Source: a virus. From it: a DNA stretch of 64,000 nucleotides. Numbering within the stretch: position 1 is the first letter of the stretch; each line of letters opens with the position of its first letter. The notes below the pieces were generated by a model. It was not told the DNA's origin. It saw only the letters and a list, made by a program, of their open reading frames with translations, and did not search any database. The stretch is from the IMG/VR virus record IMGVR_UViG_3300042876_000418, positions 1 through 64,000 of that record; one strand, written 5' to 3'. Made by a program: the position numbers and the translations under genes. Positions 5,745 to 48,975 of the stretch are shown here, in pieces.

Positions 5745-5848
5745 CAAAAAGCAACCAGCCGGGGAGGGGCCGGCTGGTCGTTAAGCGATTGGGCAATGTC
5801 GGGCCGTCACGCTTCACATAGGATAGCATATTACAATGTAGATGTCAA
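5745..5848 (-). ncRNA. Candidate small RNA unit (promoter, ~65 nt, terminator with CCCCUCC loop)
   Basis: TTGACA-N17-TATCCT at 5848-5820; stem ACCAGCCGG/CCGGCTGGT followed by T-tract. Confidence 0.45.
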
Positions 5849-6651
5849 GCGTTTTCAAACAACGAATCTTGAGTTGGGGCCGGGGCGGGGGAATCGTATT
5901 GGAACAGGGCGGGATGAGATAGGGCAGTCTTGATCCGCGCTTGCATGATATCGAAATTCGCGGGGTCCTTCTCAATCAGAATGCAATTGCGCCCGGTTTT
6001 GATTGCAGCCTCACCCGTGGTACCCGATCCAGCACTAATATCCAAGACAATATCACCGGGGTTAGTATACGTGAGGATCAAATATTCGTACAATTCGACT
6101 GGCTTCTGATTAGGGTGTAATCCGCGTTCATCGTTATTCGCTGTATTGATTTTCAAAATACTTTGCGGATATGTCATATTCAACGGGATACCGCGCGGGG
6201 CACTTTCTTTGTACGCCCCATAATTATCAGATGCAGCGCGGCGGCTTACGGGGCGAATATTTTCTTTGGGCTTGCGTCTAATTTGTGGATTATATTGATT
6301 GCTACCCTCTGCAAAAACAAGGACGTTTTCATGTTTTCGCATTGGCCTATTTTCAGCGTCTAAATGTCCCGTTGCACGATCCTTTTCCCATATCCATTCG
6401 TATTTGAACCACTCCGGGTTACTCATTACCAGGGCACTTGTGAACGGTTGGCTTGCAGTCGTAACAAATACCCCCCCCGGTTTCAATATCCGCTTTACCA
6501 TAGCCCACATGGGCACAAACGGGATAACCGAATCAAATGCACATTGCGTAACTCCATAAGGCAAATCGGTTATGATGGAATCTATAGACTTGTCCAGTAT
6601 CGACTCGGACACTTCCAGGCAATCGCCCAACAGGCAAGTAACATTAGCCAC
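5845..6651 (-). CDS. DNA N4/N6 methyltransferase (beta class)
   Basis: TDLPY, HPNQKP, VLDISAGSGTT. Confidence 0.93.
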   Translation of the reverse strand: MANVTCLLGDCLEVSESILDKSIDSIITDLPYGVTQCAFDSVIPFVPMWAMVKRILKPGGVFVTTASQPFTSALVMSNPEWFKYEWIWEKDRATGHLDAENRPMRKHENVLVFAEGSNQYNPQIRRKPKENIRPVSRRAASDNYGAYKESAPRGIPLNMTYPQSILKINTANNDERGLHPNQKPVELYEYLILTYTNPGDIVLDISAGSGTTGEAAIKTGRNCILIEKDPANFDIMQARIKTALSHPALFQYDSPAPAPTQDSLFENA

Positions 6652-7066
6652 GACTCACCCGCCTTTTGTTGAGCATCAGCGCGTCACAAATGATATGCCC
6701 TATATCGCCCACGCCCAACCCAACGAGTGCCCATACCAGAACGTCAGGCGAAACGATAGGCAGGCCAGCCAGTCCGGCGATGATGAAATATAGGCCGTAG
6801 AGGTAGGCGAATCGCGCCAGGGTGCCGATAATCGGGCCATGACTGAGCAGGGAGCGGTGGGGGATGAAAGCACGGTAAGGCCACCACAGCACCCGCCAGG
6901 GGAGGAATGAGGCAACCATATCCAAATCCGGGTTGACTGCCAGACAAGCCAGACAACCGGCGGCGGATTCGATACCGGGGGCCAGACCGAATTGAGACCC
7001 GACCACGATTCCCGTGGGAATCACCAGGGCCAGGGTGACGGCGGCGTGTGTGCTACCCCCCGGCAT
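6644..7066 (-). CDS. DUF2227-like metal-binding membrane protein
   Basis: MPGGSTH..PDLD..WWPY..HRSLLSHGPIIGT..HIICD. Confidence 0.75.
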   Translation of the reverse strand: MPGGSTHAAVTLALVIPTGIVVGSQFGLAPGIESAAGCLACLAVNPDLDMVASFLPWRVLWWPYRAFIPHRSLLSHGPIIGTLARFAYLYGLYFIIAGLAGLPIVSPDVLVWALVGLGVGDIGHIICDALMLNKRRVSRG

Positions 7067-7424
7067 TGGTATGCTCCAACAGGTACCACGCCAGGATTAC
7101 CGCTTTACATACCGCGCGGGCGGGGTGGGCGTCGTGAAATGCTAACGTCGGCTCTTCGTTGAATGCCACCTCGGAGTCGTTGATCGTGTCGGTTGTCAGG
7201 TCAACACAGCACCACCCGCCATTATTCACGGGTACCAGGGCCAGTCCGAACGCCTCCATAAACGGGGTGAGTAAATTCAGGTCGGTTTCGTAGGGCGGTA
7301 TGGTAGATAAATCTATTTTGGAATCAGGGGATAGATTTATAAGATTCACGTTAGCCATACCCAACCGAAGCCCAAAATCGTCAAGGCTAGTTAGTTTATG
7401 TACAAATTCGTCAAGTTTGCTCAC
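7053..7424 (-). CDS. Hypothetical (phage ABA-sandwich-like) protein
   Basis: IPPYETDLN...PARAVCKA. Confidence 0.5.
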   Translation of the reverse strand: MSKLDEFVHKLTSLDDFGLRLGMANVNLINLSPDSKIDLSTIPPYETDLNLLTPFMEAFGLALVPVNNGGWCCVDLTTDTINDSEVAFNEEPTLAFHDAHPARAVCKAVILAWYLLEHTNAGG

Positions 7425-8107
7425 TGTTTATTCTCCTTTAACTCTGATTCACTCAGGTACCCAATCGACACAAGCGCCACCTTGTACAGGTATTCGTTTT
7501 TCCACTTTGCCGGCTTCGGACCGCTTGCTTCGTCCGCGTAACCGTTCGCAGTGAAATAGGCCGTCATGATCTGGGCATTGCGCCGGGCGTCGGTACCCTC
7601 GTTCCAACTTCCAACCGGGGTTAGGTAGGGATACTTGCCCAATTCGATGAACTGGGTAACGAACTCCCAGATCACGTCCCCATTTACGTCATCATTGATC
7701 GAGGGGAAATGTACGATATGGGCCGGGCCGTGATTGTCACCCGGAATTACCCCTAATGTCGCACGGTAGCGCCCCATAGCGGCGATATGCTCAGTGTCCA
7801 TCGACTTCAATTCGATCAACACGCGCCGGCGACTCTCGTTCAATTCGTATTCGCCGTTGATCCAGGCATAGGTGAAATCTCGCAAACGGATAACTAACTT
7901 GTACGCCAGCCAGTCGAACAGGTAGAACGCCGCGATTCCAACAAACACATAGAACAAAAAACTAATTCCGCCGGCCAGCCACTTATCGCCCGCCTCAATC
8001 GAACGTTCCCCGAGCACATAACAGATCGCCCCGGCAATCGAACAGATGATAACCGGGGATAGGCCAGGGGCACTGGAATTATGACGGCGGGGAGTCTCTC
8101 GGATCAT
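7421..8107 (-). CDS. Membrane protein (2 N-terminal TM helices)
   Basis: Two hydrophobic stretches; coupled ORF. Confidence 0.65.
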   Translation of the reverse strand: MIRETPRRHNSSAPGLSPVIICSIAGAICYVLGERSIEAGDKWLAGGISFLFYVFVGIAAFYLFDWLAYKLVIRLRDFTYAWINGEYELNESRRRVLIELKSMDTEHIAAMGRYRATLGVIPGDNHGPAHIVHFPSINDDVNGDVIWEFVTQFIELGKYPYLTPVGSWNEGTDARRNAQIMTAYFTANGYADEASGPKPAKWKNEYLYKVALVSIGYLSESELKENKQ

Positions 8108-8122
8108 GCTTTACCTTCAATC

Positions 8123-8908
8123 TCAATCATAAAATGCTTCAATGGAATCGGTTATCGTTCGTAGCCGGGTTGCGATTTGCGCCAATTCACCAGCTAACCA
8201 AGTCATCTGTTTGTCGCCCCGAAACTCTGCTACACGGGCATTCAGGCGGGCCAGGGCGTCGGGCACATCGACAACGGTATCCCGCACCTCTTCCAACATC
8301 CGGCGCTTACGGGTGGCCGCGGTGACTTCCGGGTTTAGGTCCGCTTCGGGGTGGGGGGAGTCGTAACTCGGATTGTACCTTTCCTCATCCGATTCCGGTT
8401 GGGTGGGTTGGGGAGGGAGATTGTCAATCACACGTTCATCCCGGTCAGGCAGACGCGGGGTGGGGTTCGTAGCGCCGATCTGCCCGGTTATCTGGAGGTG
8501 CTCTAACTTTTCAACCGACAACAAGCGGCCCGTCTGGGCGAAATGATCTAAGCTCGATTCCAATAACGCCCGCCAGGCTGGATTACCTTTCGCGTCGAAT
8601 TGGTTCTGGTACCCAAGCGCGAAAACCAGATGTGAGTGGGGTAACACCTCATACCGCTCACGCTCAGCGGGCGGATAGAACGCGGCGGCGGCGGCATGGG
8701 CGCGTACCGTGCGCACCGATAAGCCGACTACCTCAGCTACAAACAGGTAGACGGGGCCGATCATCGCGCCTGAGTCGCGGGATAGCTCAGATTGAAATAT
8801 CTCGTTGGTGATATCCCCAACCTGCCAGGCCGTGCGCGTGATCGTATCGCGCAAGTGGAGAAGGCGGTTTTGGGTGGATTCGGGCAATTGGGCGAGAGTC
8901 GTGATCAT
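8123..8908 (-). CDS. Putative HTH DNA-binding protein
   Basis: WQVGD...VAEVVGLSVRTVR..FYPP..LPHSH; ATG 8908 overlaps the uORF stop. Confidence 0.6.
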   Translation of the reverse strand: MITTLAQLPESTQNRLLHLRDTITRTAWQVGDITNEIFQSELSRDSGAMIGPVYLFVAEVVGLSVRTVRAHAAAAAFYPPAERERYEVLPHSHLVFALGYQNQFDAKGNPAWRALLESSLDHFAQTGRLLSVEKLEHLQITGQIGATNPTPRLPDRDERVIDNLPPQPTQPESDEERYNPSYDSPHPEADLNPEVTAATRKRRMLEEVRDTVVDVPDALARLNARVAEFRGDKQMTWLAGELAQIATRLRTITDSIEAFYD

Positions 8909-8940
8909 AACGACTCCCATTGGCAAAAGGTTTTACGCAT
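8905..8940 (-). CDS. 11-aa leader peptide (MRKTFCQWESL)
   Basis: Strong GGAGGGAACAACG-ATG RBS; TGA overlaps the next ATG (ATGA). Confidence 0.45.
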   Translation of the reverse strand: MRKTFCQWESL

Positions 8941-8963
8941 CGTTGTTCCCTCCGATATTACAC

Positions 8964-9025: not shown

Positions 9026-9093
9026 TATACTAAGTCTACCCATCGTTCGTGTTCCTAAGAATCCGCCGGCTGATTAATCAGCCGGCGGAATTC
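9026..9093 (+). ncRNA. Candidate small RNA complementary to AACGAUG start contexts; long palindromic hairpin
   Basis: Extended -10 TGtTATACT; CCCATCGTTCGTGTTCC; hairpin TCCGCCGGCTGATTAATCAGCCGGCGGA. Confidence 0.4.
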
Positions 9094-9099
9094 GTTGTC

Positions 9100-9456
9100 C
9101 TATCCCTTTATCATTTCCCGGATTCTGACCGCCATCTCAGCGGCATACCCGCCGATGTTATTCATGGATGATCGCTCCGCCCCGCCAGGCAACTTGACGG
9201 ATTCAAGGCACGCGGCAAGCGCAGGAAGGGAATCGGCCACGATGGAGTCATAAACGTGCTGGAGTGTAGCGCCGAATTTCTCCACAAACCAAGCGTCATG
9301 CCCGCCCAAAATAAATAGCGGCATTGCGGTTGACCCGTCCTCGGAGCGCAGGCCATACTTACCTTCTCCCAACAAGATACAGGCCAGCGCGGCGATTCGC
9401 AGATCGTCCGCTTGCATCGTGTAGGGGTCACTTGGATTTACGATTTCAAATTTCAT
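9100..9456 (-). CDS. Hypothetical phage protein
   Basis: ORF MKFEIVNPSDPY. Confidence 0.7.
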   Translation of the reverse strand: MKFEIVNPSDPYTMQADDLRIAALACILLGEGKYGLRSEDGSTAMPLFILGGHDAWFVEKFGATLQHVYDSIVADSLPALAACLESVKLPGGAERSSMNNIGGYAAEMAVRIREMIKG

Positions 9457-9457
9457 A

Positions 9458-10441
9458 TCACCACCATTTACCCTCATCTGGAAATTGCTGGATTTGAACG
9501 CCGCCCAGCATGTGCCCGGCTAATTTGCGCCCCACTCGGAAATATTCCACGCCTTCCTTAGTTGTCGATTCCCGGCCCGCCAGGACTTCGGGATCGCCAC
9601 CCATCGCAAACCACTCGGGGGCCGTGATCCATTCGCCGTTTTGCTTGTGGAAGAATGGGATCTGCTTGAGATTGAAGCCGCCATCGGTGTACATCTTTTC
9701 GGCCTGCTTGCGAAGGTAATTCTCAGACGCGCAATAAGCGAACACGTGATTCGCCCAATCCGGGTTCATCACGCGGGAATTATCGCCCGATTCGGCCCCC
9801 GTAATCACGTGAATATCGGGGAACTCCCACAGCCCAGCGGCGGCGATTCCGATGTCCCCAATCAACGGCTCAAAGCTCACAAACGCCTTGCCTTTCCACG
9901 CGGCCCGTAGCGCGGGAATCCGCTTGTATGCCCATTCGGCGTTTTCCGCCGTCACCCCCAGCCGGACGTAAGGCGGAGGGTTATCCAGCCAGCGCTGAGG
10001 CAGCATGTGGAAATTCTCGTGCCGCTTTGTGAGCAGCAACCACATTAGCCCGCCGATCTTGCCAGTCTGGTCAATCACGTCACAGTATTCCTCTAGCCAT
10101 TCGTGGGGCACTTCGGAATCGAGCGGATCGCACAGATCGCCACCAAACACCCGGCGCATGACGCTAGTTTTGACGGCTTCTTTCGCCCATTTGAAAGGTT
10201 GTTTCCAGTATCCGTAACTGGTATGTTTACGGGGCTTTCCTTTGCCCCAACCGGAAATGAATTTATCGCCTTCCATGTGCCCAACCCAATGAAAACGGGA
10301 GTCGTTCATCCGCTTTGCAAAGCACTCACGGCATCCATCTGAGACCTGAGTACACCCCAACCAGGGTGAGAACGTATAACCCGGCAGCACTTCGCCGTTG
10401 TCCAATACCGTTGCTGTCCATCCAATCGTAGTTTGTCCCAT
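9458..10441 (-). CDS. DUF5131 (Gp37/Gp68) radical-SAM-like protein
   Basis: TTIGWT, GCTQVSDGCRECFA, LLLTKR, SFEPL, GAESG, FFHKQ. Confidence 0.9.
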   Translation of the reverse strand: MGQTTIGWTATVLDNGEVLPGYTFSPWLGCTQVSDGCRECFAKRMNDSRFHWVGHMEGDKFISGWGKGKPRKHTSYGYWKQPFKWAKEAVKTSVMRRVFGGDLCDPLDSEVPHEWLEEYCDVIDQTGKIGGLMWLLLTKRHENFHMLPQRWLDNPPPYVRLGVTAENAEWAYKRIPALRAAWKGKAFVSFEPLIGDIGIAAAGLWEFPDIHVITGAESGDNSRVMNPDWANHVFAYCASENYLRKQAEKMYTDGGFNLKQIPFFHKQNGEWITAPEWFAMGGDPEVLAGRESTTKEGVEYFRVGRKLAGHMLGGVQIQQFPDEGKWW

Positions 10442-13314: not shown

Positions 13315-13628
13315 GTAATCAACCCTCCGTCATACGCTTGCATGGCCTCGATCATGATTTCTTTCTTCTCTGCCTTGCTGAGCGATAACCGTTTCAAAAG
13401 ATTACACAAGCATTCAATAGTCGATTCCGAGTAAGGCGCGGGGCAATCCGCAAACCGCGCGGCGTCCAACTCTTCGGCCCCAACGAAGTCGTACCCACTC
13501 CCGAATCCAACCTTGCGATTGAGGATGATCGACGTTTTTTCCAGCCCGCGACCGTTCTGGCCGCAATGGTTCACCCACACCCGGAAACGGGCGGTTTGTA
13601 CTACTTTGTTGCGGTTCTGGTTATCCAT
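13308..13628 (-). CDS. Hypothetical protein
   Basis: Probable start MDNQN at 13628. Confidence 0.55.
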   Translation of the reverse strand: MDNQNRNKVVQTARFRVWVNHCGQNGRGLEKTSIILNRKVGFGSGYDFVGAEELDAARFADCPAPYSESTIECLCNLLKRLSLSKAEKKEIMIEAMQAYDGGLITC

Positions 13629-14149
13629 GCTTCCGTTCCTTTGAACTCCGCCGCGCGTTCGTTGCACATCCGGTCGCAAGCCACATTGTGAATGCTCACC
13701 GGGTGGCCGTGGTGTCCGATTCCGGCGGTCAATTGCGCCTTCGTTGGGTGGCCCGCCAGCAGTACCGGGGTGATCATGCTCCAATCCGTAAACCGTGACC
13801 GTTGCTTCTGGTATTCCTGGTGCATCCACGAGGGGATCCCCGTCCACTTCCAGCCCCAAAACAGCCGGCCTAATGTGATCTGTGAGTCTGAGCACAGATC
13901 GCCCGCCCAATCGCGGGGTAAGCACGATAGCCCACGTAGGGCCGCCAGCATTTCAGTGAGGTTGTTGGTTACTTTGGGCATCCCGGCATTCAGCGGGGTT
14001 ACGACTGCGGAGTCCTCGAATACGACCGTATCCACCCCGCCCACCGTGCGCACCCGGCGGTAAGCCCAAGTGCCGCCCGACTCACTCGGATTCCGGTCAA
14101 TACATCCCCCATCGCAGAAAAGTTTCTCTATTTCCATTCTTCCCTCCAC
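13601..14149 (-). CDS. rnhA: Ribonuclease HI-like protein
   Basis: FCDGGC, TNNLTEMLA, SDSQ, AGH, N..CD catalytic motifs. Confidence 0.85.
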   Translation of the reverse strand: MEGRMEIEKLFCDGGCIDRNPSESGGTWAYRRVRTVGGVDTVVFEDSAVVTPLNAGMPKVTNNLTEMLAALRGLSCLPRDWAGDLCSDSQITLGRLFWGWKWTGIPSWMHQEYQKQRSRFTDWSMITPVLLAGHPTKAQLTAGIGHHGHPVSIHNVACDRMCNERAAEFKGTEAWITRTATK

Positions 14150-23608: not shown

Positions 23609-23727
23609 CGTGATCCCTCCGGATAACCTCAGCCGAATTACCGAGGTGCTTATATGATACCACAAATTTAGCGTATTACAATGTAAAACGTATTTTATAA
23701 TCTATTTCTAATCTTATCCGACAAACG

Positions 23728-23755
23728 AAAAAGCCCCGGATAACCGAGGCTTTTC
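23728..23755 (-). terminator. Intrinsic terminator (bidirectional-looking)
   Basis: AAAAGCCTCGG-TTAT-CCGGGGCTTTTT. Confidence 0.75.
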
Positions 23756-32179: not shown

Positions 32180-32601
32180 AACAATCCGATCTTGATAAGC
32201 TGGAAGAGTTGCGCGCCAAAGCGGATATGCCGCGCGTGATGAAATTTAGCCCGGATAGTTTGAACGGGTGGAACACAATGTATATGCTCGTGCCTGAGTT
32301 CGGTAAGGTGCCCGGAATCGGGATTGAAATTTGTGAGCCAGTCCCAGGATTCGGGGATCTGGAAAAGCAGAAAACCCGCGCTGAGTATGTTGCCCTGGTC
32401 TGCAATATCGCCCCTGCCCTGGCTAAATCTAACGCAGCTATGATCGCCATCATGCGTGACGCTATTGAGCGGGCGATTGAAGCACAAGAGGAATGGGCGG
32501 ACGTTGAATTGCCCTACGCGCCCGAGTGGGTGTACCCACTCCGCCAGATCGTCAATCTACTGACGAATGCCGTCGCTCAGGCTGAGGGGGAATCGTCATG
32601 A
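32176..32601 (+). CDS. Hypothetical (Ead-like) protein
   Basis: Coupled ORF. Confidence 0.55.
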   Translation: MKQSDLDKLEELRAKADMPRVMKFSPDSLNGWNTMYMLVPEFGKVPGIGIEICEPVPGFGDLEKQKTRAEYVALVCNIAPALAKSNAAMIAIMRDAIERAIEAQEEWADVELPYAPEWVYPLRQIVNLLTNAVAQAEGESS

Positions 32602-32915
32602 CACAATGGAGATTGGAAATCGACAACGATGATGACGACCCAAAGAAATGCGTAAACGCGCCGATCATGGCATGGGTCTGGGACGGTGAAAATTCCGTAA
32701 TTTGTCGCCCAATCCGAGATGAACGCGACCGCAAAAACATGCGCCTGATTACTGCGTCTCCCAGGCTGCTTGAGGCGTGCAAACTTCAAATTTCATTTCT
32801 GCGCACGCTGCGCGATAATTACCCGGACTTATGGGATCAAATCGTCAACATATCATCCGTCACAGCATGGGACGAATTGAAAACCGCTATTCGTGAGGCT
32901 GAGGCGGAATCATGA
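32598..32915 (+). CDS. Hypothetical phage protein
   Basis: NMRLITASPRLLEAC motif common in phage early proteins. Confidence 0.65.
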   Translation: MTQWRLEIDNDDDDPKKCVNAPIMAWVWDGENSVICRPIRDERDRKNMRLITASPRLLEACKLQISFLRTLRDNYPDLWDQIVNISSVTAWDELKTAIREAEAES

Positions 32916-39512: not shown

Positions 39513-42500
39513 TTATGCACCTAAAATTTGCATAGTCTGGAATCCCTGCCGGACGTTTTCGGCCTGCATCCGGGTTTGAAGGGTGAGGTTGTACTGATTC
39601 GTATTGATGTTTGAATACGTCTGCATCATCATACTTTGGGCTGAGGCAGGCGGGGATATACGTTGCTGATTGGCTACGATTCCAGTGCCACTACCGCCGC
39701 CGCCCGCCGATCTTGCCCATTCAAGCGCATCTGGAAGATTGACGATATTCTTGGAGTTGTTCCCCCAAATCCAGCCCCATAGTTTTTCGAGCGCCTTGAT
39801 AACATCGCCCACCCACGATGAAATGTTGTCGAATGCAGTTTTGAATGGGGATGCAATCGCGTTCCCGATTTCAATAGCCTTACCGGAGAACGAATCCCAC
39901 CAACCGCTGATTTTCGTTATGATTCCATCCGGTCCATTCCAAATATTAGTTGCAAACAGTTTTATTGCATTCCAACTGTTTTGAATGGTATCGCGGATAC
40001 TTTGGACCGGATTATTAGGACTGTCTACCCAACTTTGGAATGTATCCCATATCCCGGTAATTGTGCTTGTGATCCCGTTCCAAATTGTTTCCGCGCTACC
40101 TTTTACCGCGTTCCACGCCGTTTCGAGCGCCGTTTTTACCGCGCCCCAAACCGTGCTTGCCGCAGTCTCAACCCCGTCCCACGCCGTAATGACGGCTGTT
40201 TTGATCCCGCCCCACACCGTTTCCGCCGCCGTCTTGATCCCGCCCCAGATCGTCTCAAGGGAAGTCTTGACATTACCCCAGATCGTTTCGGCGGTAGTCT
40301 TGATCCCTGTCCAAATCGAACCAATCGCATCCTTGACTCCACCTAAGATCGTTTCGGCACTATTGCTAATGGAGTTCCATGCCGAAATAAGAGCGCTTTT
40401 TATTTCCGCCCATTTCTTATCGACTTCCGTAGCAATATCTTTCCACGCTTTGGTCACTTTAGCGTAGATACTGTTAGGCCCGGTGAAATAATCCACGGCC
40501 TTCGACTTGATTTTTTCCCAGACAGAAACGAGATTAGCTACAACTTTATTCCAGGCCGAAACCAGCGCGGTTCTGATTTTCTCCCACGCATCGGTGATAA
40601 CCTTTTTGATCGCGTCCCATGCTTTACCTGTAACTTCGTTGATTTTGTACCAGACTACAACCAGCGTTTTCACCAGGTCAATATTTTCAGCGTCGATCCC
40701 GATCTGTTTGAACGCGGCGCGAATCGGACGCCCGAATATTTCATCGAACTTTTCCCCGATTGACTCCCCGAAAATCTTACCTAAATCGTACTTACCGGGA
40801 TTCCTGAATATCTCTCCGATTACGTCACCAATACGAGAAGCAGTGTCCCGAATCCCCTGCCAGTTCTCAGACCACGCCTTGACGGAAAAAATGATCCCGC
40901 TGATGATAACGCCAATCGCGCCTAATCTCGTGAGCAGTGCGCCCGCGCCGGTAGCCCCGCCAATCGTCTGAAATACGGCACTTATTTTCGTCCCTACATT
41001 CAGGATGAACCCGATGGGCTTTGACGCTAACCATAAGATCGCAACCCACTTACCCGCTGCAATCACATTCTCGTTGAGCGCCTTGCCCATTTCGGTCATA
41101 CCATAGGTGGTCTGCCCGCCCTCGGGTAGCCCTTCGTCCTGGAAGCCGCCTTTTTTCTTTGCGCCGGGAGTCGTGGTCTTGGTCAGGATTCCCATCTCTA
41201 CCAGTAAATCCAATACCCGGTAAAGTTGTTTCTCGAATTCCTTGAATACCGGGACCACATGGGTATTGAAACTATCCGCGACTGGCTGGAAGATGGTCAA
41301 TAGCCGCTGCTTGAATTCGTCAATCTTATTCTGTAGACTCGTAACCGCGCCGCCGGCCTTCTCAAATGGGGCTGACGGGTTATTCTTGCCGCCTTCACCT
41401 TCGCCGGCCCCCGCGCCCTTGTACGCTTTGGTCATCTCAATCAGAGCGCTAACCAAATCTTGTTGTAATTTTACTTGCTTTTCAAGTGCATCGGCGTTTT
41501 TCTTTGCAACTTCAAGATTCTTTTCGTCCTCTTTGCGCTTGTCAACTGAGTTTTTATACGCATCTTTAGCTGCCTTGAATTCAGCCCGTTTCGCCGCCAG
41601 TTTCGCCGGGTCCTTCTCCGTTTGAGCCAACTTGTTGTACTCGTTGACCATATCGGTGATATTCTGCCCGGCCTCTTTTTCGGCTTCACGTGATTTTTCG
41701 AGCGCTTCCTCGGCAGCATTCACTTTCTCGGTAGCATCGGCTAATTGCAACTGTAAGCCAGCCAGCTTGCCAACTTCGCCGCCGTACTGCCCCAATTGGG
41801 CCTGGAGTTGCTTGATAAAATCATCCCCGCCGCCCCCGGACAGGGCCTTCGTCATACTGCCTGCCAGGTTCTTCCACATCGCGTCTTGACTCGCCGCGTC
41901 CCCACCCATCGCGGCAAGTGCGCTCTTGATCGTGCCGCCCAACGACGTGAATACCCCAAAATCAGCCTGAGTCATGCCGTCAAGGTAGGCGGTCATAGTT
42001 GACGCGCCCCACTTGTCGATGTCAGGCAGTAAGTTCGGTGGTGAATGGGCCTCCAGGAAATAACTAATCAGATCGCCAATCCCCTGCATGGATAGGGCCA
42101 GGACCGTGCCGGTGCCCTCTGCGATTCCGATGGCGAAGGACGAAATGAGGTTGAAGCCCCATTGGGCGGCCTGCCCAATCAGTGACGCGATTCCACTGAA
42201 CATCGGTCCTGAGAAGAAATTGATTAACGTATTGGCCGCCTCACCCGCGCCACCCTTGACGATATCGAAGAATGCGCCGAACGCCGCGCCGGTACTCTCC
42301 AGCATGGGAGCTAAACGACCGCCTGTGTTGAATGCGTCTGTAATCCGCTTTGTAAAGTCGGTAATCGCCTGACCGGCCATCATTGACGCCTTGAGGAATG
42401 GGGTGCCGAGGGTCAATTGTAGATCGTTGACCACCCGCTCGTAGCTGCCCCACACCTTAGACGCCGTACCTAATGACGCCTCATAGGAGCCGGCGGATTT

Positions 42501-43172
42501 CTTTCCCTCTTCCAATACCGCGTTCAATGTAGCCTGAGACCGCTCGGTATTGGTCAGTTGTTCGGATGATTTATTCAGGCTTTTGGCGTACTTATCGAAC
42601 GCCTGCTGCATGTTGATATTCAGGCCAGCAGTGCGGAATATCTCCGTATTATAGGTCTGAATACCGTACAGGAGTCGTTGTAGAGTCTCACTTGAGTTAC
42701 TACCCGACACCTGAGCTTGATCTTGGGCCACGCGGGCTAACTGGGTGCTCTTGGCTAAATCAAGATTGTAGCGGGAAAAGTTGATAACCAGATTCGCCGC
42801 CACCCCGGCCTCGATCCCGTACTTACGGATTGAGTTGACGTTCTGGTCAACCGACTCCGCCGTGGATCCGTTTTGTGCCGCCAGATTGTAAGCGACCTGC
42901 TGCAACTGCTCAAACTTAGACGCCACGTCAAGCGAACCACCGACCAGGGCGTCAATCTTCCCCACAACTTGATCTATCGCGCGGGTCAACTGCTGCCCGA
43001 GCGCGTTGTTCAGGATCATCTGAGCAGGGGAAAGGCGGTTGTTGATCGTATTGGTAAGACTGAGCATAGACTGATTTAGGCTAAGGGTACTTTGATTAGC
43101 CGCAGTCTGCCCGCTTTGAAAGGCAGATAACCCGTCCATTACCAGTCTTACGCCTACATCAACTAAACCCAT
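39513..43172 (-). CDS. Tail tape measure protein
   Basis: 1219 aa, Ala/Gly-rich helical, 11-aa Trp-periodic repeats, HSPP motif. Confidence 0.92.
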   Translation of the reverse strand: MGLVDVGVRLVMDGLSAFQSGQTAANQSTLSLNQSMLSLTNTINNRLSPAQMILNNALGQQLTRAIDQVVGKIDALVGGSLDVASKFEQLQQVAYNLAAQNGSTAESVDQNVNSIRKYGIEAGVAANLVINFSRYNLDLAKSTQLARVAQDQAQVSGSNSSETLQRLLYGIQTYNTEIFRTAGLNINMQQAFDKYAKSLNKSSEQLTNTERSQATLNAVLEEGKKSAGSYEASLGTASKVWGSYERVVNDLQLTLGTPFLKASMMAGQAITDFTKRITDAFNTGGRLAPMLESTGAAFGAFFDIVKGGAGEAANTLINFFSGPMFSGIASLIGQAAQWGFNLISSFAIGIAEGTGTVLALSMQGIGDLISYFLEAHSPPNLLPDIDKWGASTMTAYLDGMTQADFGVFTSLGGTIKSALAAMGGDAASQDAMWKNLAGSMTKALSGGGGDDFIKQLQAQLGQYGGEVGKLAGLQLQLADATEKVNAAEEALEKSREAEKEAGQNITDMVNEYNKLAQTEKDPAKLAAKRAEFKAAKDAYKNSVDKRKEDEKNLEVAKKNADALEKQVKLQQDLVSALIEMTKAYKGAGAGEGEGGKNNPSAPFEKAGGAVTSLQNKIDEFKQRLLTIFQPVADSFNTHVVPVFKEFEKQLYRVLDLLVEMGILTKTTTPGAKKKGGFQDEGLPEGGQTTYGMTEMGKALNENVIAAGKWVAILWLASKPIGFILNVGTKISAVFQTIGGATGAGALLTRLGAIGVIISGIIFSVKAWSENWQGIRDTASRIGDVIGEIFRNPGKYDLGKIFGESIGEKFDEIFGRPIRAAFKQIGIDAENIDLVKTLVVVWYKINEVTGKAWDAIKKVITDAWEKIRTALVSAWNKVVANLVSVWEKIKSKAVDYFTGPNSIYAKVTKAWKDIATEVDKKWAEIKSALISAWNSISNSAETILGGVKDAIGSIWTGIKTTAETIWGNVKTSLETIWGGIKTAAETVWGGIKTAVITAWDGVETAASTVWGAVKTALETAWNAVKGSAETIWNGITSTITGIWDTFQSWVDSPNNPVQSIRDTIQNSWNAIKLFATNIWNGPDGIITKISGWWDSFSGKAIEIGNAIASPFKTAFDNISSWVGDVIKALEKLWGWIWGNNSKNIVNLPDALEWARSAGGGGSGTGIVANQQRISPPASAQSMMMQTYSNINTNQYNLTLQTRMQAENVRQGFQTMQILGA

Positions 43173-43175
43173 AAA

Positions 43176-43425
43176 CTAACCGCCTTTCCTGCCTGCTTTG
43201 ATTTTATCGTTCTGGACTTTCGCCAGTACCGCTTCTACTTGATTGTGCGATCTATAAGCCGCCACGAGCAGAGATTGGCGCTCGCCTTCCAGGGCTTCAA
43301 AGTCTTCAAGTTTGTAATTCGCCCATTGCGCCACGAATATTTTCTCCAGGATTGGGTCGTAACTTATCCCGCTCCTGGAGACCGGGATCCCGAACACGTC
43401 TTCGCCGTGATACTCAACTCTGAAA
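43176..43425 (-). CDS. Tail assembly chaperone frameshift extension (T-like)
   Basis: +1 frame opens just before TTT-C at 43425-43422. Confidence 0.6.
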
Positions 43426-43902
43426 CGTGTCTAGCGCCTCTTGGGTCGCTCCCTCCGTAACGCCAGAGCGGCGCATGATCGCTTCGATCAATTCCATCAG
43501 GTCGGAATCCGTGCCTACGCACAAATCCTTGATATAGATCGCCTTGTCGGATCCCTTCAGTTCAACCCCGATTTCCAGCATGTCCGCCCGCAGGGCTTCG
43601 ATCTCCGCTTTAATTTCATCGGTGATTTCAACTACCACACCCCGCGCCACGACCAAATCCTGCAATTTTTCATTGACAAGCTCTTCATTCGCGGCAAGCG
43701 ATTTGATGTAATCCGGGTGGGCACGATTCTCTTCTTGCACGACCGTGCCGTCAGGATAGGTCACGCTTTGAACGGGCGGCATTGGGATCGGGAAAGACTT
43801 CCGGATCTCTTGGGCCAGGTAGGGGGAAACTTTGCGGATAAGGACGGTCTTGCCGGTGTCCTTGAATGTGAACGGGACCAAACCAGGATTTCTTGTAGAC
43901 AC
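43414..43902 (-). CDS. Tail assembly chaperone (G-like)
   Basis: Between tail tube and tape measure; ends ..TFQS*. Confidence 0.75.
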   Translation of the reverse strand: MSTRNPGLVPFTFKDTGKTVLIRKVSPYLAQEIRKSFPIPMPPVQSVTYPDGTVVQEENRAHPDYIKSLAANEELVNEKLQDLVVARGVVVEITDEIKAEIEALRADMLEIGVELKGSDKAIYIKDLCVGTDSDLMELIEAIMRRSGVTEGATQEALDTFQS

Positions 43903-43963
43903 AATCTCACCTCATCAATATGAATTTTCCGGGCGGGAATGGGATTCCCCGCCCGGTTTGGAT

Positions 43964-45511
43964 TTACATCTTGACGGCGCTGCCAATTAGGAGGATACCG
44001 TCAGTGCCATTGCCAGCCAGCCCGGCCACGATAATGTTATTCGCGTCGGCTGAGGGGTCCGAGGTCACAGGGACAACCAGCCGCCCGGCCTTGTCGAAAG
44101 TGGGTAGATTGTTGATCCGGGGTGCCGAGTTGGTCCAATCCGCGCCACCGTTGAAGGTAGCGAAGATTCGCGCAGCCGGCCCGGTTGTGCTGTGGGACAC
44201 ATAGCCCACTTCATCGGTAGCGAAAGTAATGTCCCAGACGGTGCCGGTGCCAGAGCCTGAGAACGCCTTCTCTACCCAGGTCTTGCCACCGTTGAGGGTG
44301 TAGTACAGCTTGCCCCCGGTAGCGGTGCCAACCCAATAACGCAGATCGTCCATCACTGCTACCGCCTGAATGGTATTTGCCGCGTCTGGTGTTGCGACTG
44401 TGGTAGACCAGGTAATGCCGCGATTGATTGACTTGATAATCGTGCCGGTAGCACCCACGGCTACCAGGGTGTTTCTCGACTCATTGCCGTCAATCCGGTA
44501 CAAATCGTTGGTGGTAGCGTCACCCGCGCTCAGTACAGTAGCGCCACTCGGGACGTCGGTAATCTTGTAGATGTACCCGCCCGCCGCGGCGATGTACGCT
44601 TCATTCGAGTTGAAGACCACGATGTCATTGCCGGATTTACCGGAAACGAACCCGGTTGAAACTTTGGTGAATGCGCCGGGAATACCGGTATCGGTGTCAA
44701 TCTCAGCGTAGAAATACGCCTCGCTGCCCAGGATCACCAGGTAATTACCAATCAGGTCGATTGCCGTGATTACCTCAGCGGCCCCGAGTCCAGAGATGTC
44801 TACCGCGGTCCAGGTGGCCCCCTTGTTGACCGTGTAGTGTAGTTGTCCGGGCAGGCCCGGAGAACCAGCCCCGGACGGCGCGGTAATGGCATAAGCGCGA
44901 TTGGTACCATCATCTTGCTCACCGCACGACCCACACGATTCACGATTGGCGTAGACCGCGTCAACAACCTCGCGGTTGACCTGAGTCGCGGCCTTCTCCC
45001 CAAAACTAATCGCGCCGATGGGGTACACCTCACTCAGGATCACCGACACCCGAGTCTCAAGCGCTTCATCCGAGTCGAACGAGGTCCGCTGCCCGGCGTC
45101 TTTGTCGGTGACTTTCGCCCCGCTGTAGATCAAGACGTAATCTGACCAGCCGCGCTGAAAATCCGCCAGATCGCCGCAAACGCCGCTCACTTCGTAGAAG
45201 GTGAACGGGCATCCAATTTTGGTCAGAGGAAGGGGGATTGAGGCGTGTTTTTCGCGGAAAACTAACTCCGCCTTAGCCAGATCAGCCGGGGCAATCGTGG
45301 TCCCTGCCAGATGGAAGGTTTTGGCCCGCTTGCCAGGTACCCAGATCGGGGTGATTGAGCCGGATTCCGGAATGGTCAGGCCGTTGATAGACGCATACTG
45401 ACTGTTCTGCCCTGCGAATAGAACGGGGTTGTTTGGCCGGGCGGACCCAATCTGTATGTATACCCGCTTATTCTGTCGGGTAATCAATTCATCGTTTTTT
45501 AAGTCAGGCAT
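43964..45511 (-). CDS. Major tail tube protein with C-terminal BNR/beta-propeller domain
   Basis: Position; Asp-box repeats T.N.G.TW. Confidence 0.7.
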   Translation of the reverse strand: MPDLKNDELITRQNKRVYIQIGSARPNNPVLFAGQNSQYASINGLTIPESGSITPIWVPGKRAKTFHLAGTTIAPADLAKAELVFREKHASIPLPLTKIGCPFTFYEVSGVCGDLADFQRGWSDYVLIYSGAKVTDKDAGQRTSFDSDEALETRVSVILSEVYPIGAISFGEKAATQVNREVVDAVYANRESCGSCGEQDDGTNRAYAITAPSGAGSPGLPGQLHYTVNKGATWTAVDISGLGAAEVITAIDLIGNYLVILGSEAYFYAEIDTDTGIPGAFTKVSTGFVSGKSGNDIVVFNSNEAYIAAAGGYIYKITDVPSGATVLSAGDATTNDLYRIDGNESRNTLVAVGATGTIIKSINRGITWSTTVATPDAANTIQAVAVMDDLRYWVGTATGGKLYYTLNGGKTWVEKAFSGSGTGTVWDITFATDEVGYVSHSTTGPAARIFATFNGGADWTNSAPRINNLPTFDKAGRLVVPVTSDPSADANNIIVAGLAGNGTDGILLIGSAVKM

Positions 45512-45531
45512 CTTGTACTCCTTATCGAAAT

Positions 45532-45565
45532 AAAAACAGCCACTCCTAAGATTTAGGAGCGGCTG
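45532..45565 (-). terminator. Leader terminator before the tail tube gene
   Basis: CAGCCGCTCCTAA/TTAGGAGTGGCTG + TTTTT. Confidence 0.65.
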
Positions 45566-45666
45566 CCAAAGTCCGCCACGATTGGGATTCCAATCCGGCC
45601 TACGATTTCATTATAGCACAACTAGCAAAGCCGTTTCATAGTGTCAATTTATGACACTGTAAAACG

Positions 45667-46986
45667 TTAGGGCATATACGCCGTGAGTACCCGATTCGGC
45701 TTGACAAACTTCCATGCTTCCACCTGCCCGCGCCGCGTTCCGAACGGGTTGCCTAAATCCTCACGGCTGATGTACCCATAAGCTTCATCATTTGCGCCGG
45801 CGGAGCGGGCCAGATCGAACTGCCAGCGTGCAAGCTCACGGTTGGAGGAATCGCACGCGCAAATACGATTGGGCATTTCCGCCGCCGCCAGACGGCTTAC
45901 CGCGGTGGCATAGTTGGAACTCATGCGCCCGGATTTATCCAGGGGGAATCCCGCCAAATAACGCACAATCACACGATCCGGCTGCCTGAATTTGTAGATC
46001 GAAGAGTACCAGGGTACCGCGTCCCAGGCCCCGGTGGTGGCGTTGTAGCACGACTCCCCAATCCCCAATACGCCATTGACGCTATCGGTCAGAGTGGCCC
46101 GCCCAATCGCCCAGGCGTAGCCAGCCGGATCGGTTGACGCGAAAACAATATTGTAGTTGATCATGGGGTAAGGCGGGGTTTGCCAGATGAAGATCAATGA
46201 CGCATCGGCAAGGGTGGTGCCCTCGGTATAGGGATACCTCCAGCACACGTCAAGGGTAGAGGCGTAGTTAGTCGTGTCCGCCGCGTCAAGGGGATTGAGT
46301 GCCATCGATTCGTACAGGATGGGCTTGACCAGAAGCCACGCCGGGCCTGTGATTGTCAACACGCCGCCAGATAGGGACGTCCGAATTGGGGCGATACGCC
46401 ATCTTTCCTCGAAACTATCCCCGGTAAAACGATCCGCCGCGCTGAAGTACACCACGATCTGAGTGAGATCCACCAGTCCCACAGGGGCGTTGGCGGTCAC
46501 CGTGAATTTATCCACCAGCCCATCCCCATTGGCGTCACTGAGCGTCACGACTGAGGCCAGGCCCACCGCCACGATCTTCTCTACCCCCACCGTTTGAACG
46601 TGCTTATGCGGGACGTTGACAGTCAACCATCTATCGTTTGCCCCCGCATACCCCAAGCGGTGTACATCTACTTTCGGATAGGCCGGCCACGCCACGGTGT
46701 CCTCGCAGTAGCGCGGGGCCGGGTAGAATCCCAAGTGTGGCTCGATCCTTTCCTCCGCCGTCTGAATCGCGCTCCGAATCCCATGCCGCCCGACTACGTC
46801 CGCCTGTTGGTAGCCGTACTGAGGCACGATTGAGTTGCAGTTCGATGTTACCGGCACAATCTGCCCGCCCAAGCCCCAGAAGTGGTACGGGTGGTAGTTG
46901 ATCGAATCGCGCCACGATTCCAGCGGCAATAAATTCCAGTCAGGCAGGGGTGTTTGAATTATCGCGCCTACGCCAGTATTGGTCAT
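45667..46986 (-). CDS. Head-tail adaptor-like virion protein
   Basis: AEERIEPHLGFYPAP..VRYLAG..AVSRLAAA; position upstream of tail genes. Confidence 0.6.
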   Translation of the reverse strand: MTNTGVGAIIQTPLPDWNLLPLESWRDSINYHPYHFWGLGGQIVPVTSNCNSIVPQYGYQQADVVGRHGIRSAIQTAEERIEPHLGFYPAPRYCEDTVAWPAYPKVDVHRLGYAGANDRWLTVNVPHKHVQTVGVEKIVAVGLASVVTLSDANGDGLVDKFTVTANAPVGLVDLTQIVVYFSAADRFTGDSFEERWRIAPIRTSLSGGVLTITGPAWLLVKPILYESMALNPLDAADTTNYASTLDVCWRYPYTEGTTLADASLIFIWQTPPYPMINYNIVFASTDPAGYAWAIGRATLTDSVNGVLGIGESCYNATTGAWDAVPWYSSIYKFRQPDRVIVRYLAGFPLDKSGRMSSNYATAVSRLAAAEMPNRICACDSSNRELARWQFDLARSAGANDEAYGYISREDLGNPFGTRRGQVEAWKFVKPNRVLTAYMP

Positions 46987-46998
46987 GAAACCTCCAAC

Positions 46999-47020
46999 AA
47001 AAAACCCGCCATGAGGCGGG
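46999..47020 (-). terminator. Leader terminator
   Basis: CCCGCC-TCAT-GGCGGG-TTTTTT. Confidence 0.65.
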
Positions 47021-47089
47021 CGTCAATTCCGTAAGATTCCGGCTAACCGGTCAGACAGTTAGATTATAGCATATCTCGCAAATGACCCC

Positions 47090-47118
47090 TTGACAAGAAA
47101 CGTTTTACAGTGTAGAAT
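47090..47118 (+). promoter_or_regulatory. Sigma70 promoter of the inserted operon
   Basis: TTGACA-N17-TAGAAT. Confidence 0.75.
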
Positions 47119-47152
47119 AAATTATATCAGATTGACAGTTTCGGAGGGAGCA

Positions 47153-47359
47153 ATGACGGTAATCATTCACGTAATCGAGCGAACGGATAGCAAACCAGAG
47201 GGGCGGCTATTTGACGGTTGGATCGAAAACGGCTCCAACCTGGAAACTCAGCTTGTCGCTCAGTCTAGCCGCAACACAATCGCGTGGTGCTGCCGGGTAG
47301 AGAAGGCCGCTTTCATTCGCGGCTACGATTGCAGCCGGTCTATGGATTTACGGTTTTAG
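47153..47359 (+). CDS. Hypothetical protein
   Basis: GGAGGGAGCA-ATG. Confidence 0.55.
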   Translation: MTVIIHVIERTDSKPEGRLFDGWIENGSNLETQLVAQSSRNTIAWCCRVEKAAFIRGYDCSRSMDLRF

Positions 47360-47368
47360 GAGGAAATA

Positions 47369-47584
47369 ATGAAAATCAGCAAAGCAGTGGGCTCGTCGCC
47401 TTTCAAGGTGGTTGTCGTGAAACTTTCTGACGGAATCTACCAGGGGAAAGCGAGTGGATACGAGGTTGAAATCACGGAAGGGAAGTACACAGGCACCATT
47501 GTAAAAATGGCTAATGGGGTTCGTGGCATGAATATTCCTGCGACCATTACCGTTGAAAACGGGGATATCTCCATCACAATTTGA
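47369..47584 (+). CDS. Hypothetical small beta protein
   Basis: AGGAGG RBS. Confidence 0.65.
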   Translation: MKISKAVGSSPFKVVVVKLSDGIYQGKASGYEVEITEGKYTGTIVKMANGVRGMNIPATITVENGDISITI

Positions 47585-47607
47585 TGCGAATTTCAAAGGG
47601 AGCGATC

Positions 47608-47862
47608 ATGTAAAACATCACCATCAAAATCGTAATGCCGTTCGATAAGTTCAACACCCAAAAATCTACCGTCAACGAGCAGATTGGGATCGCCGCTGGA
47701 TCCGATGTCTACGCCACCGCGCGCGGCACGGCAAAGAAAATGATCCGCGCCCTCAATTCCCTACCGTAGGCGTGGGGGAATCTGTTCATCGAAGGCGGTC
47801 CGAGTTATCATATTTATAAGAATGCTGGAGTTTGGAAAGTGGAGGAATTGAAACATGCCTGA
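47608..47862 (+). pseudogene. 85-codon gene with two in-frame stops
   Basis: GGGAG RBS; ATG-TAA at codon 2; TAG at 47767; frame continues to TGA overlapping the next gene. Confidence 0.55.
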
Positions 47863-48223
47863 ATTCATGGTTGAATTATTTGACGGCTCCGAAAACGGGA
47901 TGGTTATCACCGACACGCAGCGCAAAGTCGGGTTAGCCAACTGCCTGCAAAATTCCGACTTCATCGCGCGGGCATGGAACCAAGCAAACGGAATCGGATT
48001 CATGATCGCGCCCGGATCGGTTGACGCCCGTGCCGCTGTGACTCGTGAGGTCGCACAGTTCTTTGGGTGGCACGTCACCACGCCGCCGAATTTCATCATG
48101 GTCAAAGCGATGGTAGCGGGCGGAGAGGTGATGACCGGGCAAAGAGAAGTTGAGCGGTTTCGGTTCGACAATGGCCTGTCGGTCATCCCGATTGAGAGTG
48201 TGGTGGCCTGGAGGGTATCATGA
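47855..48223 (+). CDS. Hypothetical protein
   Basis: GGAGG RBS. Confidence 0.6.
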   Translation: MPEFMVELFDGSENGMVITDTQRKVGLANCLQNSDFIARAWNQANGIGFMIAPGSVDARAAVTREVAQFFGWHVTTPPNFIMVKAMVAGGEVMTGQREVERFRFDNGLSVIPIESVVAWRVS

Positions 48224-48440
48224 TCTGGGAACGCCGTGATGGTTGGGTTATCCGCTACATTTATGCCTACGATCCATTTGGCCTGTCATCTCGCATGGAT
48301 GGACGCCGGGGTAGCGCCGGGCGTCACCGGGGCACTCCTGGAGTCCGCGACTCCGGTCGGGGCGGTGGGCGGTATACGAAACGATACGCCGATAAACGTA
48401 ATCGTCAACCGCGAAAGCGGAATTAGATAAGGGAGTAACG

Positions 48441-48761
48441 ATGAAAACACTGCAAGAATGTATTCGTGAGGACCAAGAAAGCCCCGCGTCCCAATTGATT
48501 AGCCGGATGGAACGCGAAACAGGCCAGCGGGTTGACGATCCTGGAAGTAACGCACTCGCCGGCCTGTTCGGTGCAATGGCGCGAATGATGGGTAAAACGA
48601 ATTACCCCCCCCAGGATGATGTGGTGGCGGGCCTGTTGATCCTGCATCAGATGACACCGGAATACCAGAACGATCAACGCAGTAAAGAAATGATCACAGG
48701 TATGCTTACCGCTGGAATGTCGCCCGATGATATCCGTGCCATGTTTGGGAAAGGTAGTTGA
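48441..48761 (+). CDS. Hypothetical protein
   Basis: AAGGGAG RBS. Confidence 0.6.
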   Translation: MKTLQECIREDQESPASQLISRMERETGQRVDDPGSNALAGLFGAMARMMGKTNYPPQDDVVAGLLILHQMTPEYQNDQRSKEMITGMLTAGMSPDDIRAMFGKGS

Positions 48762-48863
48762 CATCCTGCCCGCGTGGTGCTAATATAAAAACACCTCCTA
48801 ACGGTTTTTGAGCCTGAGTTCCATTCTCCACGGAAAGACCCCGACACGACGCGGGGTCTTTCT
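48758..48863 (+). ncRNA. Small RNA gene A (anti-SD CACCUCCU)
   Basis: TTGACA-N17-TAATAT; ~70 nt; terminator GAAAGACCCCG/CGGGGTCTTTC. Confidence 0.65.
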
Positions 48864-48868
48864 CGTTA

Positions 48869-48975
48869 TTGACAATCTGATTGTGTCGTGCTAAACTGAA
48901 TGCACTCCCTTAGTGCTGCTCCACCCCATTCTTGCCCCACGAAAGAGCGCCGCCCACCCCGGCGCTCTTTCAATT
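48869..48975 (+). ncRNA. Small RNA gene B (C-rich)
   Basis: TTGACA-N17-TAAACT; ~70 nt; terminator GAAAGAGCGCCG/CGGCGCTCTTTC. Confidence 0.65.

Follow-up and report, generated by a model that had tools for sequence, protein, structure and literature searches.

Two back-to-back small-RNA genes, and perhaps one or two further short RNA elements, with exposed C/U-rich stretches that mirror ribosome-binding sites (RBSs) are plausibly present in an uncultured phage known as IMG/VR record IMGVR_UViG_3300042876_000418. The record is a single-contig virus of 89,961 bp, and the window analysed here is its first 64 kb; positions in the full record are marked G000. The original prediction had described five non-coding stretches of the window, here called units 1 to 5, as one dispersed family of small RNAs (sRNAs) antisense to RBSs and start codons that would silence translation in trans. 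All five stretches exist, but they form a mixed set and not a single family. In the reading that we prefer, and to which we assign a probability of about 0.4, units 4 and 5 would be sRNAs that mask Shine-Dalgarno (SD) sequences, unit 3 would be an element of the same style, unit 1 a short RNA, and unit 2 transcription punctuation. For now the finding amounts to a hypothesis at annotation level, for an uncultured phage.

Units 4 and 5 lie in tandem on the plus strand as co-linear cassettes of 108 and 107 nucleotides (nt). The unit 4 promoter (48758-48786) reads TTGACA-17-TAATAT and that of unit 5 (48869-48897) TTGACA-17-TAAACT, both with a TG-extended -10 element; with a score of 11.5 on our scale they are among the top promoters of the 90-kb genome, and terminators follow 66-69 nt downstream. 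The predicted RNA of unit 4 comprises about 74 nt (48793-48866, +) and would begin with the unpaired sequence ACCUCCUAA (48793-48801), behind which come a CU-rich middle with little structure, GAGUUCCAUUCUCCAC, and, at 48831-48864, a hairpin terminator. That of unit 5 comprises about 72 nt (48904-48975, +); its 5' part contains 49% C and 11% G, with unpaired ACUCCCUUA at 48904-48912 and CAUUCUUGC at 48927-48935, and it ends in a palindromic terminator hairpin (48945-48967) with the loop CCCACCC. In each cassette the predicted +1, 7 nt past the -10, is the A with which ACCUCCUAA or ACUCCCUUA begins; in the predicted folds neither stretch is paired. The alignment of the two cassettes has a z-score of 3.2, with 0.4% of 500 shuffles as good, and the tandem pair probably arose by duplication.

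Both cassettes are also tied to the neighbouring genes. The TGA stop (48759-48761) of gene 48441-48761 sits inside the -35 element of unit 4 (48758-48763, +), and unit 4 doubles as the untranslated region at the 3' end (3'UTR) of operon 47090-48761. The unit 5 hairpin adjoins the stop of the convergent gene 48976-49293. A- and U-runs flank both hairpins, which are terminator-like on both strands and also serve the two convergent operons. The terminators would thus be required regardless of any sRNA, to end these operons, which counts against the sRNA reading. The terminators can, however, be accounted for without an sRNA; this does not apply to the two consensus promoters, which lie within 220 nt of non-coding sequence. 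Judged from this anatomy, units 4 and 5 are probably real small-RNA genes. That they give discrete transcripts seems to us a good deal better than an even bet, and RBS masking as their function about half as likely as that. A coding role for the units would be that of very small proteins, in view of two overlapping open reading frames (ORFs) of 28 amino acids (48808-48894, TTG start) and 35 amino acids (48900-49007, ATG start). Neither ORF has an SD sequence and no SD-led ORF occurs in units 4 and 5; both frames run through the terminators, and the ATG at 48900 lies only 3 nt past the -10, upstream of any likely transcription start. On these grounds the small-protein explanation was rejected, and we consider it barely credible.

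The main rival explanation is that the short RNAs are by-products of phage promoter/terminator punctuation. The hairpins would end operons, the promoters would serve terminator/antiterminator timing, the short RNAs would not pair with anything, and the C-rich matches would reflect chance together with the selection made in the original prediction. The model for this is lambda PR'-tR', where an intrinsic terminator stands no more than about 100 nt behind a strong promoter and an abundant short RNA, the 6S RNA, results; the unit precedes the late genes and is read through by Q. We regard the punctuation explanation as a serious possibility that stays below even odds. It agrees with a census made without regard to the units, in which all promoters of the 90-kb genome were scored and a hairpin with a T-run was sought within 140 nt. 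Six of the 21 promoters scoring at least 10.5 have such a terminator, against a background of 3.5% per position (P ~6e-5; for 5 of 21, ~7e-4). These are the promoters of units 4, 5 and 1, the late-operon leader at 45639, a unit at 58019, and one at 84893, inside a coding region and taken as false. None of 95 such promoters in four other viral records (360 kb) showed this coupling. In view of the 6 of 21 against 3.5% background and the 0 of 95 elsewhere, termination close to promoters is genuinely habitual in this phage, with units 1, 4 and 5 as the cases that lack an ORF. The non-random coupling of promoter and terminator also counts in favour of the sRNA reading.

Punctuation is further favoured by the generality of promoter-proximal terminators in this genome, which include the late leaders at 45639 and at G000 88371 and a promoter-terminator-promoter-gene arrangement before the integrase. 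Each of units 1, 3 and 4 is placed exactly in the interval from a stop codon to the terminator of that operon, and the position of the unit 5 hairpin next to a convergent stop points the same way. However, a lambdoid terminated leader was rejected for units 4 and 5: no genes that could be gated or antiterminated into lie behind them on the same strand, only the 3' end of the convergent operon (gene 48976-49293). Unit 1 also differs from PR'-tR' in that the gene behind it has its own 11/12 promoter at 5740.

As a separate observation, promoter-proximal terminators occur at 45534-45639 (-), 57933-58019 (-) and 61972-62106 (+) of the window. Several of them are leaders directly before an RBS, which suggests regulation by antitermination.

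Complementarity to translation start regions is the second line of evidence, and the picture of anti-SD content beyond chance is mixed. The five motifs quoted in the original prediction are all present: CACCTCCT in unit 4 (48792-48799), ACTCCCTTA in unit 5 (48904-48912), TTCTCCATT within unit 3, CCATCGTTC in unit 2 (9040-9048, plus strand) and CCCCTCC in the loop of the unit 1 hairpin. Of the C/U-rich parts said there to reverse-complement SD or start sequences, the seeds of units 3, 4 and 5 are predicted to be unpaired; in unit 1 the terminator loop is the only such part. UCCC is unpaired at the 5' end of unit 5 and CCUCC in unit 4 in the predicted folds; neither motif occurs in unit 2 or unit 3. 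For the statistics, 109 start regions were called by their SD sequence, start codon and ORF length; of these, 94 that begin with AUG or GUG were retained. Exact 8- and 9-mer complements to these 94 regions are enriched for units 2, 3 and 4 (2000 dinucleotide shuffles, p 0.001-0.04), and the pooled exact-seed p-values are 0.001-0.005. Compared with all 165,942 35-nt windows of the genome lying outside start regions, unit 2 ranks in the top 0.14%, unit 3 in the top 0.22%, unit 4 in the top 1%, unit 5 in the top 9% and unit 1 in the top 41%. A correction for selection was made with the 35 nt preceding each of 24 non-coding hairpin orientations. The 99th percentile of the genome is attained by three of these flanks, those of units 2, 3 and 4, and the 95th by a fourth. 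That the seed enrichment for start regions holds in this census of 24 flanks argues against punctuation alone. The seed matches of units 2-4 are 4- to 6-fold more frequent in start regions than in other sense RNA; the binomial p-values of this comparison are inflated by overlapping words, and its sense mask mis-assigned the strand at 48441-48761, which makes the unit 5 counts too low.

Other results weigh against the sRNA reading. The original prediction depended on target energies better than those of shuffled sequences, and for none of the units was this found (unpaired parts against 94 start regions, 200 dinucleotide shuffles). The fraction of shuffles with a minimum duplex energy at least as good was 0.06-0.9 across units, and the only marginal values were the unit 4 regions below -12 kcal/mol (p 0.01) and the unit 2 minimum (p 0.06). 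Energies equal to those of shuffles are what punctuation would give. Exact-seed enrichment is absent for units 5 and 1 in the same shuffles and genome windows. The motif CACCTCCT alone is not unusual, as it is found once in the window and at least once in 71 of 100 shuffles. The start-site set, with 94 of 109 calls kept, is heuristic, and the per-unit p-values are inflated since the units had been picked for their anti-SD look.

For unit 5, a candidate target is found in the start region (48428-48460, +) of gene 48441-48761. There, UAAGGGAGU in the RBS (48428-48436) is a 9-nt perfect complement of ACUCCCUUA, and GCAAGAAUG in codons 4-7 (48452-48460) is a 9-nt perfect complement of CAUUCUUGC. 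In 16 of 5000 shuffle sets of all five units a two-site match to one start region was as good, and this 0.3% event counts against punctuation only. A point on the other side is that the two sites are in crossed order and not co-linear; one continuous duplex is therefore impossible. For the 5' end of unit 4 the candidate target is UUAGGAGG (47356-47363, +), an 8-nt match in the RBS of gene 47369-47584, which belongs to the operon that has unit 4 as its 3'UTR. The middle of unit 4 is a 9-nt complement of AGAAUGGAA (14132-14140, -) at the start codon of the RNase H-like gene 13601-14137. Units 3 and 4 both hold 9-nt complements of GAGAAUGGA(GAA) at 28598-28606 (+), in the RBS region of gene 28617-28838.

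The location of these sites raises the possibility that the 3'UTR acts only in cis, as in icaR. Unit 4 and, after read-through, unit 5 would fold onto the RBSs of their own polycistronic messenger RNA (mRNA), by which translation would be damped and RNase III invited, and the internal promoters would be secondary. Unit 4 is indeed the 3'UTR of operon 47090-48761, and the best matches of its 5' end and of unit 5 are RBSs in that operon (47356-47363 and 48428-48436). There is a precedent in icaR, in which a UCCCCUG of the 3'UTR acts on the SD sequence of the mRNA itself (PMC3868564). However, if the long mRNA alone mattered, the presence of two consensus promoters within 220 nt would be difficult to account for, the unit 4 match covers only 8 nt, and unit 3 has no 8-mer complement to a start region within its own operon. 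We consider an exclusively cis-acting role unlikely.

Unit 3 is the 66-nt 3'UTR of gene 23794-23985 (23727-23791, -). Its fold consists of a 5-bp 5' hairpin (23786-23772), a 16-nt unpaired linker and a 12-bp terminator (23756-23727), and the single-stranded linker carries UGAGUUCUCCAU (23771-23760). The linker is a 12-nt perfect complement, at -19.3 kcal/mol and with the seed unpaired, to positions -11 to +1 of gene 86682-88370 (G000), which lies behind the late-type leader terminator at 88371 and ahead of the endolysin, as the first gene of their operon. A match of at least 12 nt was found in 257 of 5000 shuffle sets, which makes the 12-mer a 5% event and weakens the case for it. A perfect TATAAT is present at 23803-23798, and by our reading the best -35 at a spacing of 16-18 nt matches only 3 of 6 positions. 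Unit 3 shares GCCUGAGUUC and adjacent bases with unit 4 (alignment z-score 3.8); by itself the shared 10-mer has a blastn E of ~4. Unit 3 is a 3'UTR element and possibly a 3'UTR-derived sRNA; as a 3'UTR riboregulator it is plausible.

Two further observations concern unit 3. The start region of gene 32598-32915 (32573-32612, +) contains two unit 3 complements, CUCAGGC at -22 and ACAAUGGAGA at +5, in an order that is crossed as for unit 5. The terminator of unit 3 carries GGTTATCCGG across its loop and 3' arm (23736-23745), and this sequence recurs at 23619-23628, in the start region (GGUUAUCCGGAGGG) of the next gene, 23345-23608.

Unit 1, whose promoter and terminator are as good as those of units 4 and 5, has its promoter on the minus strand (5820-5848, TTGACA-17-TATCCT with TG), and the TGA stop (5847-5845) of the methyltransferase gene 5845-6651 is inside its -35 (5843-5848, -). 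The predicted RNA of about 66 nt (5748-5813, -) is folded nearly completely into a 5' stem-loop and a terminator at 5781-5751. The sole anti-SD is the 7-nt terminator loop CCCCUCC (5769-5763), which matches generic GGAGGG only; beyond this loop no complementarity of unit 1 to start regions was found. Among the 24 non-coding hairpin orientations, anti-SD-type loops occur only in unit 1 and unit 5 (CCCACCC). Downstream of unit 1 there is a second promoter (5740-5712, 11/12), followed by gene 5452-5676. Unit 1 is probably expressed as a separately promoted, tightly folded short RNA, as far as its sequence indicates. The same layout is seen at G000 89510-89586 (-), where TTGACG-N14-TGCTAGCTT is followed by a hairpin terminator of ~35 nt, a second promoter and the integrase gene 88464-89456.

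Unit 2 has a hairpin with a 12-bp palindromic stem (9062-9089, readable on either strand) that lies 10 nt past the stop of the minus-strand gene 9100-9477. On the minus strand the hairpin is followed by a start-site-like sequence, AGGAACACGAACGAUGG, a promoter (9006-8978) and a real RBS, and the plus-strand seed CCATCGTTC is the mirror of AGGAACACGAACGAUGG. Another palindromic hairpin, at 72054 (+), shows the same mirror effect. By our reading TTGACG and TATACT of unit 2 are just 8 nt apart. As an sRNA unit 2 was rejected for three reasons, namely the absence of a promoter, the mirroring of a coding-strand start-like sequence by the seed, and the hairpin 10 nt past a stop. It is best read as the (bidirectional) terminator of gene 9100-9477, that is, as ordinary punctuation.

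These differences between the units are reflected in their sequences. In blastn-short comparisons all E values between units exceeded 0.1, except for the promoter box common to unit 1 and 23685-23669. Thirteen of 15 pairwise alignments were no better than shuffles; the two pairs above them are unit 3 with unit 4 and unit 4 with unit 5. One sequence family for all five units was rejected on these two comparisons. Strong hairpins are present in all five, with fold z-scores of -2.8 to -7.5. The claim that most units have a promoter of their own applies to three (units 1, 4 and 5), for which sigma70-type promoters were found: at a threshold of 9 of 12 matching hexamer positions on the claimed strand there was none for unit 2 or unit 3. 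Three units occupy the space from the stop codon of a co-directional gene to its terminator (unit 1 after 5845-6651, unit 3 after 23794-23985, unit 4 after 48441-48761), and units 2 and 5 are not. A trans-acting repertoire that silences RBSs is plausible for units 4 and 5 and possibly for unit 3, in view of the unpaired seeds, the preference for start regions and the two-site match of unit 5. A five-member repertoire does not stand, given units 1 and 2 and the lack of a -35 in unit 3.

Comparison with related sequences did not extend the group. At gathering score Rfam gave no matches in the window, and no transfer RNA or transfer-messenger RNA was found. Permissive Rfam scans of 48740-48990, 5680-5860 and 23610-23830 gave sub-threshold, terminator-like matches only (best E 0.017), which fall on terminators with bit scores far below gathering. 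Among GenBank phages there was no blastn match for 47000-53500, no tblastn match for a 515-residue protein, and endolysin matches of 24-28% identity only; no viral locus was found for the 973-residue glycosyltransferase. Of four viral records that were fetched, only one shares genes with this phage, about a dozen at 24-45% identity. From these searches the phage appears to be without a close relative in GenBank phages or the fetched IMG/VR records. Several findings on the 106-residue protein flanking the units weigh against a conserved sRNA locus. The protein has 68 homologues, the nearest 68% identical, and alignment of 46 of the 68 sequences gave 11 viral and 40 metagenome loci and none among genome contigs. 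The units are not kept in any of these 11 and 40 loci, which have 39 distinct 3' flanks in all, 7 of them viral; this lack of conservation is also a point in favour of punctuation. Anti-SD pentamers are not commoner in the homologue flanks (6 of 39) than in random windows (14.5%). No DNA similarity to units 4 and 5 was detected in five records with related genes.

Two side observations were made in these flanks. In one locus (L005, 5280-5335), UAUUCCCCCUCCAU and a strong terminator come directly after a homologue (56% identical) of the gene that precedes unit 4; this is an isolated look-alike of an anti-SD 3'UTR. TTGACA across the stop codon is found in 2 of the 39 flanks (L044 and L047) with no matching -10.

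Contrary to the statement that no named system of this form is known, C-rich-box sRNAs, the icaR 3'UTR and P1/P7 c4 RNA all act in this way. In Firmicutes, RsaE, RNAIII and others have an unpaired C-rich motif that pairs with the SD sequence and prevents formation of the initiation complex (PMC2790875). RsaE, RNAIII and LhrC block SD sites by means of UCCC or CU-rich motifs, which are located in 5' ends, in linkers and in the loops of terminators, and the class spans Staphylococcus, Bacillus and Listeria, with LhrC in several copies (PMC2790875, PMC4132741). C-rich seeds that block SD sites are therefore a mechanism already known, here in a phage. LhrC1-5 of Listeria monocytogenes resemble the units as short, G-poor, terminator-ended copies, in which redundant C-rich motifs within a single-stranded segment and within the loop of the terminator bind the SD region, which is rich in G, and block translation (PMC4132741); their multicopy nature recalls units 4 and 5 as adjacent paralogue-like copies. 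Unlike LhrC, the units are phage-borne and known from sequence alone, they have no sequence or Rfam-level similarity to it, and UCCC is present only in unit 5 and the unit 1 loop, with CCUCC in unit 4. RsaE/RoxS and RNAIII share with the units a classical terminator and exposed seeds (PMC2790875), but are described as conserved chromosomal genes with proven targets, whereas the units match no family. Membership of a named RNA family thus fails on homology, as judged by sequence comparison.

In the Staphylococcus aureus icaR mRNA, UCCCCUG of the 3'UTR pairs with the SD sequence of the same mRNA (PMC3868564). The units are similar in that an anti-SD is located in a 3'UTR, with units 1, 3 and 4 between stop and operon terminator, and in that 8 nt at the 5' end of unit 4 match an RBS within the same operon. 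However, icaR as described there acts within one mRNA and has no internal promoter, whereas units 1 and 4 have consensus promoters and free short RNAs are therefore expected. The c4 RNA of P1/P7 is likewise a short phage RNA that blocks translation by pairing around an RBS, in that case of ant (PMC12197685). Units 4 and 5 differ from c4 by their own promoters, their location downstream of the candidate target and the absence of an Rfam match, and a c4-type immunity RNA was rejected for them on the first two grounds. Target recognition by c4 reportedly involves two sites, which would resemble the two 9-mers of unit 5, and c4 is said to be cut from the leader of the operon that it controls and to govern immunity.

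In view of the anatomy and statistics described above, transcription, pairing and repression by units 4 and 5 may be envisaged as follows. Host sigma70 polymerase would transcribe the units from the consensus extended -10 promoters and stop at the intrinsic terminators. Each RNA of ~72 nt would open with an unpaired anti-SD and present further CU-rich single-stranded stretches. By pairing with SD and start regions of certain phage mRNAs, these could deny access to the 30S subunit, in the manner of C-rich-box sRNAs. Two RBSs of the neighbouring operon 47090-48761 and a few replication and late genes would be the best candidate targets. Since unit 4 is also an operon 3'UTR, the same sequence could act in cis. 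In unit 3, a single-stranded linker before the terminator, weakly similar to unit 4, would play this part, with a late-gene start region as its best match.

The RNAs could instead be directed at the host, either by targeting host or competitor mRNAs or by titrating SD sequences as mimics of the 3' tail of 16S ribosomal RNA, and the phage matches would then be incidental. The sequence CACCUCCU in the 5' end of unit 4 is the anti-SD of bacterial 16S ribosomal RNA, and the promoters of units 4 and 5 lack the ACATTGTAAT box of other phage promoters and may fire constitutively. On the other hand, an 8-nt anti-SD would not discriminate between mRNAs, and host-directed action appears quite improbable. 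A more speculative variant, to which we attach little weight, is that units 4 and 5 are constitutive mimics of the mRNA-docking tail of the ribosome and, with unit 3, sort mRNAs by the bases flanking the SD sequence. Two abundant RNAs of ~72 nt that start at +1 with an anti-SD would mask host, early or premature late messages with ordinary or particular SD contexts. Genes with the private extended RBS GGAGGGAAC, which is fully complemented by none of the five units, would escape. If true, the phage would take over and time translation through a programme made of RNA only. The RBS itself, which the original prediction had called stereotyped, is genuine, with 9 matches against 0.59 expected.

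If units 4 and 5, with or without unit 3, are real riboregulators, the phage would time or partition translation by means of its own SD-masking RNAs, as a layer on top of a promoter-terminator logic that looks unusually rich (6 of 21). Clear cases with testable pairs, such as unit 5 with the start region at 48441 and unit 3 with that of the late operon, would be useful because phage-encoded sRNAs with defined targets are few (PMC12197685).

In the window, genes for replication and nucleotide metabolism occupy 1-26.9 kb on the minus strand and include two DNA methyltransferases, clamp-like, ThyX-like and DnaB-like proteins, an O-like initiator and a primase. They are followed by small genes on the plus strand (27-33.3 kb), a minus-strand tail module with a 1219-residue tape measure protein (33.4-47 kb), the short plus-strand operon that ends in unit 4 (47.1-48.76 kb; 47090-48761) and the convergent minus-strand operon with the 973-residue glycosyltransferase (48976-53477). 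Past the window lie the endolysin, a 562-residue protein of unknown function and the integrase. The assignment of the phage to a Chloroflexi host is supported by no result of the analysis; the only host hints are endolysin identities of 24-25% to Paenibacillus and Alicyclobacillus phage proteins. The phage DNA is present in two rhizosphere metagenome DNA runs, both of which may be its source and in the contigs of which no sequence variants were seen over 40000-59999; for 44000-53999 no RNA run was listed. In one public run 40000-59999 is found identically inside a contig of 99,694 nt. This exceeds the 89,961 bp of the record by ~10 kb, so that the latter may lack sequence or have been trimmed.

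Two minor features were noted at other promoters and RBSs. The stereotyped RBS GGAGGGAACAACG (8905-8953, -) drives an upstream ORF of 11 codons with its ATG at 8940. The TGA of this ORF shares bases with the start codon of gene 8123-8908 (ATG at 8908), an arrangement that resembles translational coupling via a leader peptide. The near-palindromic box ACATTGTAAT has 8 matches with at most 1 mismatch, against 3.7 expected, and 5 of 100 shuffles reach 8. Its sites are at 5830, 8957, 8976, 23675, 27310, 53521, 55302 and 60610 of the window, in or beside several promoters including that of unit 1, where it lies in the spacer, and the box may be an operator.

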